Below, piece after piece: positions 17,500-24,748 of a stretch of 64,000 nucleotides of DNA (its first letter is position 1; the number at the start of each line of letters is the position of its first letter). This DNA comes from Acidobacteriota bacterium (GTDB lineage: Bacteria; Acidobacteriota; UBA890), in the NCBI GenBank assembly GCA_965216935.1, contig OZ244217.1:3597565-3661564 (forward strand), read 5' to 3'. Under the pieces are notes generated by a model. It made no database searches. It saw nothing but the letters and a program-made list of their open reading frames with translations, and had not been told where the DNA came from. Position numbers and translations under genes: made by a program.

Positions 17500-18165
17500 T
17501 CAGCAATGGACGAGGATGTGGAACGGCTTGTCGGCCAGCGCGCCGGCGCTGGTGCGCGTGACCACGACAAGGTCGTTGATGGAAAACTGCGATCGATACG
17601 CGGCCACCTCCCCGGCGACCCCGTTGTACGAGGTGCTGAACGTCGCGTTCGCCTGGTCACCCAGCGCGGCAAAGAAGTTGCAGCCCTCGATCGAGCGAGC
17701 GAACGTCACCAAGTACTTCCCCGTGGCGAGCTTCACCGTCGAGGAGACACCGCGCGCCCAGGAGCTCACCAGGCCACCGCTGGCCGCGACGCTCGCCGAG
17801 TAGACCACCGTCGAATTGACGTGAGTGATCGCGCGGGCCGCATCGAAACCGAAGTACGGCGTCCCTCCGGAGGGTGGATTGGCTGCGAGAACGTTGCCGA
17901 AGTGCACGCCGCCAAACCGGTCGAGCACGATAATTCCGTCGCGTGCCAACGGAAGCCCGTCGGCGGGAACGACATCGATGTCGACCGCGACATCGAAGCC
18001 GAAGTACGGTGTCGCGGGGCTCGGCGCCGGCGCCCCTCCACCGGCGTGGACTCCGCCGAAGCCGTCGAGTACGTAGTAGCCGGCGTGCTGCGCCCACACG
18101 GGGCCCGCGGCGAAGAGAACGAGACTACCGAGGGCCGCAATGGCGACCACGAAGCGACGGTTCAT
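17500..18165 (-). CDS. small secreted protein with two copies of the novel GGVHAGGG/PYFGFD ~40-aa repeat and a C-terminal beta-rich domain
   Basis: Signal peptide MNRRFVVAIAALGSLVLFAAGPVWA. The repeats are YYVLDGFGGVHAGGGAPAPSPATPYFGFDVAVDIDV and IIVLDRFGGVHFGN...GGTPYFGFDAARAI. Confidence 0.6.
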   Translation of the reverse strand: MNRRFVVAIAALGSLVLFAAGPVWAQHAGYYVLDGFGGVHAGGGAPAPSPATPYFGFDVAVDIDVVPADGLPLARDGIIVLDRFGGVHFGNVLAANPPSGGTPYFGFDAARAITHVNSTVVYSASVAASGGLVSSWARGVSSTVKLATGKYLVTFARSIEGCNFFAALGDQANATFSTSYNGVAGEVAAYRSQFSINDLVVVTRTSAGALADKPFHILVHC

Positions 18166-18261
18166 AGCGACTCCTGCTCGAGAAGAGGCGATCCGGCAGC
18201 GGCGGAGACTGCGAGCGCCCCTCCGCGCAGCCGGAGGTTCTCCGGGCGGTCGATCGGCGAC

Positions 18262-18708
18262 CTACCGCCCGCTGGGCGACTGCACGAACTGGCCGATTGT
18301 CAGAATGATGTCCGGGTCGTACGGGGCGTTGACCCAGGGGACCGGGGCGGCCGGCCCCGGATTGCCGTCGGAGCCGTTGCTGGTGATCGTGAACGTGTCG
18401 GCGCCGGTGGTGTAGACGAACGGGTTGCCCCACCCGTCGGTGTTGGGTGCCGCCTGCATGTAGCCCTGGGTCGCCAGGGCCGCCAGCGTCGGCGCGTAGC
18501 TGCCGAGATCGAGCCGGTGGACGCCGTTCGCGGTCGCCACGCCACGCATGTCCGCCATGCTGCGACGCTGCCGGCCACGGTCCATGGCGTCCATGAGCTG
18601 GGGCACGGCGATGGCCGCGATGATGCCGATGATCGAGACGACAATCAGCAGCTCGATCAGGGAGAAACCGGCGGCGCCAGATCGAACGGTGCGCACCTCA
18701 TGGTTCAT
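18262..18708 (-). CDS. prepilin-type N-terminal cleavage/methylation domain protein (type IV pilin / pseudopilin-like)
   Basis: GFSLIELLIVVSIIGIIAAIAVP is a class III signal. The internal Met start was chosen. Confidence 0.7.
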   Translation of the reverse strand: MNHEVRTVRSGAAGFSLIELLIVVSIIGIIAAIAVPQLMDAMDRGRQRRSMADMRGVATANGVHRLDLGSYAPTLAALATQGYMQAAPNTDGWGNPFVYTTGADTFTITSNGSDGNPGPAAPVPWVNAPYDPDIILTIGQFVQSPSGR

Positions 18709-18836
18709 ACATCCTCGCTTTCTCCACCCTCCTCTCATTCTCTCCGAGCGCGAAGCGACTGTCCAATGGTGTGGCCGCGCTCGGGCCGCGCGGTTGGCCG
18801 GCTGGTGCAGTGCGACCAGGTCCGGGCCTCCCCTCC

Positions 18837-22378: not shown

Positions 22379-23538
22379 GCCAGCACCTGCTCGAAGACGC
22401 CGCATGCACGCTCCATCTCGTCGAGCGTCCCGATACTGATGCGGGCGTGGGTTTGTTCCATGGGCGGAAAGTTGCGCCCGACGCCGACACCGTGCTCGCG
22501 GCACGCGGCGCGGAACTCCGCCGCGGGACGGCCGATGTTGACGAAGATGAAGTTCGTCTCGGAGGGCAGCACCTCGTAGCCGAGGTTGTCGAAGAAGTCC
22601 ATCGTGTAGCTGCGCGCCTCGGTGTTGCGCGCCTTCTCCTGTGCCTCGCGGGCGCCATCCTGCAGCGCCGCGTAGGCACCGGCGAGCGTCGGCACGGCGA
22701 TGTTCACGCCGAGGGCCAACGACTGCAGCTTCTCGATCGTGCGACCGGAGCCGATGCCGTACCCAACCCGCATGCCGGCCATACCGAAGCATTTCGAAAA
22801 GGTTCGCGAGACGAAGACGTTCTCGTGCTCGATCGCGATTCCCGCAGCCGACTCGTAGTCGGGATGGGTGACGTACTCGTGGTAGGCCTCGTCGACGTGG
22901 ATGACGGTGTCCGGCGTCGTCCGCCGCAGCGTCTCGGCAAACTCTCCTATGGCGGCGCCGCTGTGGACGGTGCCCGTCGGGTTGTTCGGGTTGCACACGA
23001 ACACCAGGCCGGCGCCGCGGGCGGCATCGGCCATGGCGCCGAGATCGAGCATGCCGTCGCCGGTGATGGGGATTCGTCGCACCTCGGCACCGAGATACTC
23101 GGCCACCCTGCCCGTCTGCGAGTACGTCGGGCTCGCGGTCACCAGGTGCCGCCCCGGACCGCTAAACCCTTGCGCCCCGGTCTTGAGGATCTCGCCCGAA
23201 CCGGCGCCGAGAACGATGTTCTCCGCCGCACAGCCGTTCCGGCGAGCCAGGGCCGCGGTGAGGTCGGCCATGCTCGGCTGAACGTTCATCGGATACCGGC
23301 CGGCGCCGGCGAAACCGTCGTGGATGGCGTCCATCGAGGCCGGAAACGGCCCCAGGGGGTTCTCGTTGCTGGTCAGACGGATCTCGCCATTCTGCGGTGG
23401 CGGGATCAGGCCGGACTCGCCGCCTCCCGGACCCAGCTCGGCGACCAGCGCCTCGCGCCCACGAGCCGAGATGAGCTGCCTCAGGTTGGCGCTCGATCGG
23501 GGCTCACGAGCAAACAGTGCTCTGCGGGAGAGCGACAT
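22375..23538 (-). CDS. HisC-family (class II) PLP aminotransferase paralog with degenerate RR motif (MSLSRRALFA) and no hydrophobic h-region
   Basis: HisC motifs SNENPLGP, VCNPNNPTG and SRTFSKCFGMAGMRVGY. It overlaps the downstream paralog by 4 nt. Confidence 0.8.
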   Translation of the reverse strand: MSLSRRALFAREPRSSANLRQLISARGREALVAELGPGGGESGLIPPPQNGEIRLTSNENPLGPFPASMDAIHDGFAGAGRYPMNVQPSMADLTAALARRNGCAAENIVLGAGSGEILKTGAQGFSGPGRHLVTASPTYSQTGRVAEYLGAEVRRIPITGDGMLDLGAMADAARGAGLVFVCNPNNPTGTVHSGAAIGEFAETLRRTTPDTVIHVDEAYHEYVTHPDYESAAGIAIEHENVFVSRTFSKCFGMAGMRVGYGIGSGRTIEKLQSLALGVNIAVPTLAGAYAALQDGAREAQEKARNTEARSYTMDFFDNLGYEVLPSETNFIFVNIGRPAAEFRAACREHGVGVGRNFPPMEQTHARISIGTLDEMERACGVFEQVLA

Positions 23539-23668
23539 GGCTTCCTCCTGCTCCGTTTTCGGATGGGCGGATTCTGTACGCGGCGAAGGAATACGGCAAG
23601 GGGGGACGGCCGGATCGAAGCCGTACCCTCCGCCCGTCGCCGTCGGACTCATTTCAACGTCTACCCCG

Positions 23669-24748
23669 TCAACGACGAACCGCGGTGATCTCCAGAAGCT
23701 GCTGACGGACCCGATCGGCGAGGCCACGCTGCTCGAGCTCCCGCCAGAGGAGCGCAACCGCTTCTGCGTCGACCAATCCCGCCGGGGAACCGGACGATCC
23801 TGTCCGCAATCCCTGATCGGCGCGGAAGGCATCCACCGCGGCGACCGCCTCGGCCGTGTACAGGCCGGCGTTTCCGCCGCGGGCGAGCTCCGGGCTGTCG
23901 GCGCGGAAGTACCCGAGGGCGTGCAGGATTACCTTGAGCTGCCACACGTCCGAGCCGGCAGCTTGCTGCAACACCCGGTGGCCGAGGGTGCCCGAGATCG
24001 TGTCGTAGACACGCCGCAGCTCGGCGACCGGCGTGGGGTGCTCGCACACGTTGACGTGCACCGTCAGTCCGTCGGTACGCCGCGAACGGCCCTCGCGCGG
24101 ATCGGCCACGATAACGGCCGCCGATTGCACCCGGCCATCGCGCGCGTCTCCGCCGGTCGCCTGGCCGGCGGCCAGCGCCTCGATGAGACGGTCTGCCAGA
24201 TGTCGCGGAGCCCCCTGGCTGCGTTCGAACGCCTCGGCGACGGCATCGACCACCTCCTGCCCTACCAGTGTGTTTCCCTGGACCGCGTAGTTCGGGCCGG
24301 AGCGATGCCCCGACCAGCTGCTGGTCTCCGACCCGGTGTGCTGGGCTGTGGTTCCGTCAAGCGCAACGACGCCGACCTGTCGGCGCGACGCCCGAGGGTC
24401 CGCGGCCACGAGCTCACGTAAAGCGTCTTCCGGCGCCCTCCCCTGCTGCAGCAGGTCCAGAAGCTCATTTCCGTACTCGGTGCGGGTCGACGCCTGGGTG
24501 GCCACCGCGCCGACGCCGGCACGGACCCACGGCACGCCGTTGCCGACGCAGGCGACCCGTGTCGTGACGGCCACGCCCGACTCACCGGTCGCCGGATCGA
24601 CGGCGGCGATCGAGAAGGTGTGGAACTCGAGCGGGTCGCCCCAGTCGGCCGGCTCCTGGGCGGCTGCGTCGAAGGGGAAAATCAGATGAAAGGCAAGTGC
24701 AAGGGCGCCGGCCGCGCCCAGGCTGCATCGGCGTCGTCGTTCGATCAC
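23669..24748 (-). CDS. secreted DUF1028 (Ntn-hydrolase-like) protein with C-terminal peptidoglycan-binding-like domain
   Basis: Signal peptide MIERRRRCSLGAAGALALA. DUF1028 core FSIAAVDPATGESGVAVTTRVACVGNGVPWVRAGVGAVATQA. C-terminal PG_binding_1-like LKVILHALGYF...YTAEAVAAVDAFRADQGL. Confidence 0.6.
   Translation of the reverse strand: MIERRRRCSLGAAGALALAFHLIFPFDAAAQEPADWGDPLEFHTFSIAAVDPATGESGVAVTTRVACVGNGVPWVRAGVGAVATQASTRTEYGNELLDLLQQGRAPEDALRELVAADPRASRRQVGVVALDGTTAQHTGSETSSWSGHRSGPNYAVQGNTLVGQEVVDAVAEAFERSQGAPRHLADRLIEALAAGQATGGDARDGRVQSAAVIVADPREGRSRRTDGLTVHVNVCEHPTPVAELRRVYDTISGTLGHRVLQQAAGSDVWQLKVILHALGYFRADSPELARGGNAGLYTAEAVAAVDAFRADQGLRTGSSGSPAGLVDAEAVALLWRELEQRGLADRVRQQLLEITAVRR

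Follow-up and report, generated by a model that had tools for sequence, protein, structure and literature searches.

We analyzed a 64,000-nucleotide stretch of DNA from an Acidobacteriota bacterium (assembly GCA_965216935.1, contig OZ244217.1, positions 3,597,565 to 3,661,564 of the forward strand), referred to below as the window, and focus on six consecutive genes within it, G1 to G6. A preliminary description of this DNA had interpreted the six genes as one operon of a novel type, in which a leucine-rich repeat (LRR) protein and a repeat partner are produced together with envelope-modifying enzymes. That interpretation is not supported by the gene order of 160 related loci or by G4, which has no ortholog, and we consider it probable that the six genes are a co-directional mosaic of three evolutionary layers and not one dedicated operon.

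Gene layout

The cluster comprises the following genes, given in order of transcription with positions in the window:

G1, 23669-24748, minus strand, 359 aa: secreted DUF1028 protein with a C-terminal PG_binding_1-like domain
G2, 22375-23538, minus strand, 387 aa: class I/II pyridoxal phosphate (PLP) aminotransferase, HisC/PtaA/PRK09105-like
G3, 21206-22378, minus strand, 390 aa: aminotransferase paralogous to G2, with a canonical twin-arginine translocation (Tat) signal
G4, 18837-21185, minus strand, 782 aa: secreted multidomain LRR/fn3/InlB-B-like/propeller protein
G5, 18262-18708, minus strand, 148 aa: prepilin-type protein, GspG-like pseudopilin or type IV pilin-like
G6, 17500-18165, minus strand, 221 aa: small secreted protein with two propeller blades

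Genes were called from a listing of open reading frames, a frame plot of GC content at third codon positions (GC3) with codon-position GC profiles, and translations. The strand, coordinates and spacing of the preliminary description (a 4-nt overlap to gaps of about 130 nt) all held, with intergenic distances of 130 nt for G1-G2, -4 nt for G2-G3 (an ATGA overlap), 20 nt for G3-G4, 128 nt for G4-G5 and 96 nt for G5-G6. Six co-directional genes in a row are nothing unusual in themselves. All six products are predicted to be extracytoplasmic, as had been proposed, and Pfam and NCBIfam searches recovered nearly all of the domains named earlier; the peptidoglycan-binding tail of G1 fell below threshold and the fn3 domain of G4 was marginal. 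GC content in the window is 64-71%. Recent foreign insertion of G4-G6 was considered, and we make no such claim because the GC content and GC3 of these genes match their surroundings.

Conservation of gene order

A scan of 185,579 species-representative genomes with G1 yielded 375 relatives, of which the best 80 loci were kept and searched by tblastn with all six proteins and the flanking genes. A second sample of 80 metagenome loci was anchored on G2, for a total of 160 anchored loci. The closest relatives are uncultured Acidobacteriota represented by metagenome-assembled genomes (MAGs). Nothing resembling G4-G6 follows G3 in any of the 160 loci (80 G1-anchored from genomes, 80 G2-anchored from metagenomes), and the order G1-G6 is not conserved among them. 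Homology detected by tblastx to the six closest relatives, L006, L008, L009, L088 and L089 among them, ends at window positions 21205-21206, which is the stop codon of G3, and beyond G3 the relatives carry either a region of mobile or phage-like character, a gene in convergent orientation, or PadR and MacB as a convergent pair.

Smaller units are conserved. G2 and G3 are both present in only three of the 80 G1-anchored loci (L006, L008 and L009), all from the closest Acidobacteriota; in L070 the contig ends inside the G2 homolog, and G1 stands without an adjacent G2/G3-like gene in about 69 of the 80. Among the G2-anchored loci, L088 and L089 have the tandem G2 then G3 together with G1, and L090, L091, L092 and L094, which are more distant, have it without G1; overall the tandem is kept in L006, L008, L009, L088-L092 and L094. 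G2-G3 is a tightly conserved unit, and G1 with G2-G3 is conserved in one narrow clade. The preliminary description had named a lack of co-localization in other genomes as the observation that would speak against its operon; by that measure G2-G3 holds, G1 with G2-G3 holds in one clade, and G4-G6 do not hold. The apparent operon is ordinary genome mosaicism.

The DUF1028 protein G1

G1 is a member of DUF1028 (PF06267; 218.6 bits against a gathering score of 26.2, E=8.7e-65) over profile positions 1-193 of 193, and its residues 44-218 align to 2IMH, the DUF1028 structure (E=2.5e-17). We take the fold and clan of DUF1028 to be those of N-terminal nucleophile (Ntn) hydrolases; we know of no function assigned to the family, and a literature search on DUF1028 returned nothing relevant. 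Thr44 (FH|TFSI) aligns with the first residues of 2IMH and comes directly after a conserved stretch of 13 residues that begins at the predicted signal-peptide cleavage site AAA|QEP. Thr44 is the predicted N-terminal nucleophile of G1, and the layout is as would be expected of an autoprocessing Ntn hydrolase. G1 resembles the DUF1028 family, in which a C-terminal peptidoglycan-binding domain is optional, in its full-length domain match and, by comparison with 2IMH, in the position of its TFSI start, and it carries a PG_binding_1-like tail; it differs in being secreted with a conserved 13-residue pro-segment and, in some lineages, in adjoining Tat aminotransferases.

When the C-terminal 105 aa were scanned alone, PG_binding_1 (PF01471) scored 17.1 bits (E=0.0065) against a cut-off of 23, a sub-threshold assignment that we regard as plausible. 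The tail is kept in all 80 G1 orthologs (the best 80 of 375, from Acidobacteriota and Gemmatimonadota), which are 59-83% identical over the whole protein including this tail. G1 is a stand-alone conserved gene, predicted to encode a housekeeping-like periplasmic enzyme. An RRRR stretch made G1 a candidate Tat substrate; this was rejected in favor of a Sec signal because the twin arginine is absent in orthologs.

The aminotransferase pair G2-G3

Both proteins belong to the class I/II aminotransferases (PF00155; 157.7 bits for G2 and 133.3 for G3 against 19.7), are 44% identical to each other, and keep the PLP-lysine motif TFSK, NPNNPT (NPNNPTG in G2) and DEAY. The earlier assignment to a HisC-like tandem agrees with these matches. 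NCBIfam models rank PRK09105 first for both, then PtaA and hisC, all under their curated cut-offs: 272.6 (G2) and 261.0 bits (G3) against 444 for PRK09105 (NF006580), 229.3 and 234.6 against 500 for the PtaA equivalog (NF051461), and 234.5 and 194.8 against 276.55 for the hisC equivalog (TIGR01141).

As a Tat signal we accepted S/T-R-R-x-F-L-K with an uncharged h-region, hydropathy being the best 12-residue Kyte-Doolittle (KD) value. At the sequence level G3 carries a canonical signal, TRRSALKGLGIGTTAAAIMSF, in which TRRSALK is joined to GLGIGTTAAAIM (KD 1.46), and G3-type proteins from all loci show S/T-R-R-x-x-x-K/R followed by hydrophobic cores resembling GLGIGTTAAAIM (KD 1.3-1.66). G2 retains SRRALF before a charged h-region (KD -0.23, 4 charged residues) and does not qualify. 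G2-type proteins always begin M-S-L-S-R-R-A-L-F; in the clade of the window the next 18 residues include four charged ones (KD about -0.2), and most G2-type proteins have KD values of -0.23 to 0.5 with up to 4 charged residues. SRRALF is kept across G2 orthologs that are 57-80% identical, and normal h-regions occur in the more distant G2-like proteins of L092 (paired, KD 1.56) and L097 (unpaired, KD 1.49). The conserved SRR motif and these normal h-regions identify the N-terminus of G2, as far as sequence comparison can, as a decayed Tat signal and not a chance pair of arginines. A degenerate motif in the first copy and a canonical signal in the second had been read correctly from the start.

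HisC-type enzymes are dimers. Given their conserved order, the 4-nt overlap and a signal that has decayed in G2 alone, we infer that G2 is most likely co-exported as a G2:G3 heterodimer on the signal of G3. Co-export of this hitchhiker kind is known in the Tat system for the small and large subunits of hydrogenases and for DmsAB. There too one partner bears the Tat signal and, as would apply to G2, the signal-less partner leaves in a pre-assembled complex. G2 would differ in that the passenger is a paralogue of its carrier, giving a putative heterodimer of a normally homodimeric enzyme, and in that it still conserves the twin-arginine motif.

The nearest described enzyme is PtaA, said to have been reported by Ringel et al. 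in 2017 as the periplasmic transaminase of Pseudomonas pyoverdine tailoring. PtaA is exported by Tat and works in the same compartment as the Ntn hydrolase PvdQ. It sets the precedent for Tat export of a "normal" PLP transaminase in folded form, cofactor included, and a review of the system points to homologs in non-pyoverdine producers and proposes other periplasmic pathways (PMC6206403). G2 and G3 share with PtaA/PRK09105-type proteins the HisC-like class I/II fold, in G3 an N-terminal twin-arginine signal that aligns with the PRK09105 model from position 5, presumably export in a folded state with PLP bound, and occurrence outside pyoverdine producers. They differ in scoring far under the cut-offs (229-235 against 500, 261-273 against 444), in forming a conserved tandem pair with the h-region lost in the first copy, and in their setting, an Acidobacteriota host with no siderophore genes near G2-G3.

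Adjacency of DUF1028 and Tat aminotransferases

In six marine Gemmatimonadales loci (L024, L036, L038, L046, L052 and L055, probably one lineage), a PRK09105-like aminotransferase with a Tat signal (MDQRRSFSRRQFMGGAATALGYLGL...) lies directly upstream of the G1 ortholog on the same strand, at about 8700-9900 in each locus. A Tat aminotransferase thus accompanies G1 orthologs in two phyla and in two different gene orders, that of the Gemmatimonadales and the acidobacterial G1, G2, G3. By rough inference, two such arrangements in two phyla are unlikely to have arisen by chance for so rare a gene type, and they hint at a functional link between G1 and Tat aminotransferases. An aminotransferase-like gene in L019 was not counted because it is divergent, of a different type and without a Tat signal. 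By analogy, a periplasmic Ntn hydrolase paired with a Tat-exported transaminase would recall PvdQ and PtaA.

An uncatalogued family of propeller repeats

The C-terminal part of G4 holds six copies of a repeat of about 40 aa with the motif YVLDGxGGVHxGGGAP...TPYFGFDIARDLE. The repeat had been called novel, and this stands: the region has no Pfam match at E<=10, no NCBIfam match and no PDB sequence match at E<=10, and a literature search for the motif strings returned nothing relevant. AlphaFold2 modeled it from a 62-sequence alignment as an all-beta, six-fold repeated structure (predicted local distance difference test, pLDDT, 94.4; predicted template modeling score, pTM, 0.91), in which six four-stranded blades close a ring; in this predicted structure each repeat is one blade of a six-bladed beta-propeller. 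The figures listed for comparison with known propellers are 17.9 for LRP4 YWTD, 17.5 for LRP6 YWTD, 15.4 for NHL, 15.3 for a monomeric RSL lectin and 15.2 for the PknD sensor. Sequence profiles do not place the repeat in the YWTD/LDL-receptor class B, NHL or other catalogued propeller families. It shares six four-stranded blades of about 40 aa with YWTD/LDL-receptor class B, NHL, PknD and RSL/AAL propellers, and differs from known six-bladed propellers in its sequence (about 10% identity), in the distinct motif YVLDGxGGVH...PYFGFDIARDLE, and in being typically a C-terminal module on secreted hydrolases.

The family is large. The repeat region has 388 word-sharing homologs, and a profile search gave 3,496 cluster representatives at 50% identity with E<=1e-3, of which 934 had E<=1e-30. 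Fusion partners are mostly secreted cell-wall enzymes (Peptidase_M23 in 11 of 60, and also CHAP, SpoIID, YkuD, Amidase_2 and CAP), with proteases, glycoside hydrolases and Ig/fn3 domains besides; in uncultured Actinomycetota, Dormibacterota and Acidobacteriota many members are part of peptidoglycan hydrolases. This preponderance of cell-wall enzymes suggests that the propeller is probably a targeting module that binds wall or glycan.

Blades were counted with a single-blade hidden Markov model. G4 has 6, the modal count (92 of 141 profile representatives), and G6 has 2, as do all 105 hits of the search with G6. Proteins ending in ...DLELR have 3 blades (n=7) or 6 (n=11), never 4 or 5. One two-blade relative of G6 (P0201) places the blades in an N-terminal module that is followed by a Gly-rich region and Peptidase_S74, an intramolecular chaperone of trimeric tail fibers. 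The blade counts, this S74 protein and the poor confidence of the blades in a monomer model of G6 fit an assembly of two-blade proteins as trimers, and of three-blade proteins as dimers, into six-bladed rings. Fucose lectins offer a parallel to G6 (2 blades) and G4 (6 blades), since RSL is a two-blade protein that trimerizes to a six-bladed propeller and AAL is its single-chain six-blade version.

In two further family members (P0002 and P0004) the blades are split by an inserted domain of 90-150 aa (2 + 4 blades in P0002), which suggests domain insertion into, or a circular arrangement of, the propeller.

Architecture of G4, G5 and G6

The recognizable domains of G4 and G6 are:

20541-21065 (approximate), minus strand: G4, plant-type LRR after the signal peptide (LRR_8, 42.1 bits against 27)
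20190-20417, minus strand: G4, fn3 (25.9 bits against 25, marginal)
19572-19730, minus strand: G4, InlB-B-like domain (Flg_new_2, InlB B-repeat, 35.9 bits against 23.6)
18840-19556, minus strand: G4, C-terminal propeller of six repeats of about 40 aa, blade 3 degenerate
17809-18078, minus strand: G6, two propeller blades after the signal peptide
17503-17808, minus strand: G6, beta-rich C-terminal domain of about 100 aa with two conserved Cys

The LRR, fn3 and InlB B-repeat matches of G4 reach Pfam gathering scores, fn3 marginally, and follow the signal peptide in that order, with a stretch without assignment between fn3 and the InlB-B-like domain (residues 355-457 gave nothing in Pfam at E<=10 or in PDB sequence searches). 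The architecture, the six repeats and the 20-nt gap are those of the preliminary description. The N-terminal half matches hundreds of bacterial "LRR protein" entries as well as the ectodomains of plant LRR receptor-like kinases. G4 differs from bacterial surface proteins with plant-type LRRs and fn3 in that LRR-fn3-InlB-B is joined to this propeller in G4 only. It forms a singleton cluster (P0371) without an ortholog of full architecture; the best of the other proteins reach no more than 60% coverage, all of it in the LRR-fn3 part.

G5 had been called prepilin-type, and its N_methyl match (PF07963/TIGR02532; 29.1 bits against 21.2 and 16.3), leader ...SGAAG|FSLIELL, which conforms to G|F-x-x-x-E, and T2SSG domain (31.5 bits) agree with this. 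It resembles GspG-like pseudopilins in that motif and that domain, and differs in falling below the GspG equivalog cut-off (TIGR01710; 69.9 bits against 88.85) and in its surroundings: the parts of the window that were scanned, about 8.1-31.9 kb and 34.9-47.9 kb, hold none of the gsp or pil genes for the machinery of type II secretion systems or type IV pili. We class G5 as an orphan gene of the pseudopilin-like kind. Its sole relative found, 49% identical, lies on the opposite strand of L006 (15849-16601, minus) without a propeller neighbor. The protein (250 aa) has a zinc ribbon at its N-terminus, a predicted transmembrane segment and, at its C-terminus, the GspG-like domain that shows the 49% identity to G5; pseudopilin-like proteins are not usually built in this way.

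G6 consists, as described earlier, of a signal peptide and two copies of the G4 repeat, followed by the C-terminal domain. In the AlphaFold2 monomer model the C-terminal domain has pLDDT 92-98 and the blades 53-81. A Foldseek search with this model returned nothing significant (best phiAB6 tailspike, E=0.02, template modeling score 0.33), and the C-terminal domain gave no match in Pfam at E<=10 or in PDB sequence searches. Members of the G6 family combine a signal peptide and two highly conserved blades with one of several unrelated C-terminal domains. The exact sequences of G4 and G6 both occur on one public contig of 5,870,592 bp, and at least nine two-blade paralogues, G6 among them, lie on this 5.87-Mb contig of the window. 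Elsewhere, homologs of G6 lie next to a GFO/GMC/glyoxalase block in L086 and downstream of a PadR-MacB pair in L087, and neither locus has G4 or G5. By sequence, G4, G5 and G6 are predicted secreted or surface proteins specific to this genome.

Transcription signals

Promoters and terminators were judged by consensus scans. Two weak promoter-like sites were found, before G5 and before the downstream PadR gene, and no intergenic gap held a match to an intrinsic terminator. RNA folds of the gaps were no more stable than those of shuffled sequences (z -1.0 to +1.0) and have no bearing on the presence of terminators. Across the end of G5 (18166-18261) lies a strong hairpin, CGGGCGGUAGGUCGCCGAUCGACCGCCCG, whose stem includes the TAG stop codon; a T-run is absent, and the entire G5-G6 gap folds no more stably than shuffles.

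Proposed roles and alternative explanations

We propose that the first layer is G1, an enzyme of DUF1028 Ntn-hydrolase fold that would probably self-process at His43|Thr44 and be tethered by its peptidoglycan-binding-like tail. The second would be G2-G3, aminotransferases of the PtaA/PRK09105 kind that would take up their cofactor and fold in the cytoplasm before export by Tat, G3 on a functional signal of its own and G2 most likely by hitchhiking in the heterodimer. Together, G1 and G2-G3 would probably process free alpha-amino groups on envelope-derived amino acids or peptides, in parallel to PvdQ and PtaA in periplasmic pyoverdine tailoring. The third layer, G4, G5 and G6, would have accreted in this genome only; G6 would probably trimerize to rebuild a six-bladed propeller, and the propeller would bind cell-wall or glycan ligands.

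Several points weigh against this layered reading. The gap between G3 and G4 is just 20 nt, and most of the genes have no convincing terminator or promoter between them, so some or all of the six may be co-transcribed in this genome. A promoter would hardly fit into this gap, so G4 may be transcribed here by read-through from G2-G3, which would be operon accretion and not a designed module. G4 and G6 carry the same rare repeat 0.7 kb apart, where function rather than chance is possible, and in L001 a small 3-blade protein lies 1.1 kb from a large 6-blade one; there is a weak case for a local functional pair. The link of G1 to aminotransferases is absent in most genomes and is therefore facultative at best. 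Most of the related loci are MAG contigs, and several are short. Gene structure, domains, the predicted propeller fold, family size, the lack of synteny and the decay of the signal peptide come directly from the analysis; heterodimer formation, export of G2, substrates, the propeller ligand and trimerization of G6 are proposals.

That G1-G6 form one envelope or surface-appendage operon, with an LRR adhesin, a pilin and a repeat partner alongside envelope-modifying enzymes, is very unlikely. The single strand, short gaps, 4-nt overlap, export signals on all six products and lack of a strong intrinsic terminator between genes would all suit it, but synteny has already largely refuted it: the two halves are combined in no related locus, the homology of relatives stops with G3, G4 is a singleton, G6 comes from a dispersed paralogous family seen in other contexts, and G1 is mostly found alone. 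It is unlikely, too, that G4-G5-G6 are a separate lineage-specific trio inserted behind G3 as a small adhesion or glycan-binding module, in which G5 would be a subunit of a pseudopilus or pilus-like fiber presenting or anchoring the propeller proteins. G4 and G6 do share blades and flank G5 within 3.7 kb, G5 is preceded by a weak promoter-like site, and the larger of the two neighboring L001 proteins (816 aa) likewise ends in a C-terminal 6-blade propeller. However, no pilin stands beside the propeller genes of L001, L086, L087 or the short contigs L003-L005, the one relative of G5 has no propeller neighbor, secretion and pilus machinery is missing from the scanned parts of the window, and with at least 11 propeller-repeat genes in the genome the closeness of G4 and G6 may be chance.

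G2 and G3 might instead be ordinary transaminases of amino acid biosynthesis, duplicates of hisC, with G2 cytoplasmic and the link to G1 coincidental. Their TIGR01141 scores, the annotation of their nearest PDB relatives as histidinol-phosphate aminotransferases, and the lack of a usable h-region in G2 lean this way. Yet both proteins fall short of the hisC cut-off and match PRK09105 best, with G3 aligning through its Tat-signal region; the G3 signal is canonical and conserved, SRRALF persists in G2 orthologs, no his genes occur in the scanned parts of the window, and Tat aminotransferases adjoin G1 orthologs in two phyla and two gene orders. We consider this explanation quite unlikely.

Returning to the layered reading, we tentatively join two broader proposals to it, a combination that is possible but that we would not call likely. 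The YVLDGxGGVH...DIARDLE repeat may define a large uncatalogued "fractional" propeller family, in which six-blade proteins as monomers, three-blade proteins as dimers and two-blade proteins as trimers may all yield one kind of six-bladed module for binding wall or glycan; the acidobacterium studied here may have expanded it into a combinatorial set of secreted proteins with swappable C-terminal domains. DUF1028 and a heterodimeric, Tat-hitchhiking aminotransferase pair may form a new pathway of periplasmic transamination, the substrates of which would be amino compounds of the envelope, whether derived from peptidoglycan or not.

The lasting value of the locus lies in an uncatalogued propeller family with fractional members and a Tat-aminotransferase pair recurrently found by DUF1028-peptidoglycan-binding proteins, both of which are directly testable. 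A family that Pfam, NCBIfam and PDB lack, with some 3,500 clusters at 50% identity, gains a confidently predicted fold and a testable targeting role, and its 2-, 3- and 6-blade versions are a natural system for studying the assembly of propellers from fragments. To our knowledge, pyoverdine tailoring is essentially the one setting in which PLP chemistry of the periplasm has been described; a Tat-aminotransferase pair that is conserved, has one decayed signal and recurs beside such DUF1028 proteins suggests that this chemistry is broader. The adjacency also provides the first concrete functional context for DUF1028.

Flanking genes and other features

The cluster is bordered by the following genes:

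25196-28612, plus strand: Tricorn-type protease, 1,138 aa (PD40 propeller, Tricorn C1/PDZ, S41), upstream of and divergent from G1
16929-17303, minus strand: PadR regulator outside the cluster, its downstream boundary
14287-16932: MacB/FtsX permease, 881 aa, overlapping PadR by 4 nt (translational coupling)

The divergent Tricorn-G1 pair is kept in L007 (84% and 80% identity), where aminotransferases are absent and the downstream genes are unrelated. Beyond the Tricorn gene, a block of GFO/IDH/MocA oxidoreductase, GMC oxidoreductase and glyoxalase genes occupies 28732-31900 of the window and recurs at 14797-17880 in L009 and 2369-5425 in L086. The block has 66-90% amino acid identity in relatives, the genes between it and G1 or G6 differ, and the region around it is a local rearrangement hotspot. 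Further along, thrS-infC-(rpmI?)-rplT-pheS-pheT followed by RNase Y (39408-47860, plus strand) form a housekeeping string, which places the window in the core chromosome.

On the other side, a 13-bp unit, CATCCCTGGGTAG (minus strand), occurs in three tandem copies at 17438-17480, about 20 nt past the G6 stop codon, and has one other, weaker match in the whole 64-kb window. At 17276-17323 a sigma-70-like promoter match (TTGACC-17-CATAAT) overlaps a palindromic repeat, ATGCATTATGCAT (ATGCAT palindrome), at the PadR start codon; the palindrome is probably a PadR auto-operator.

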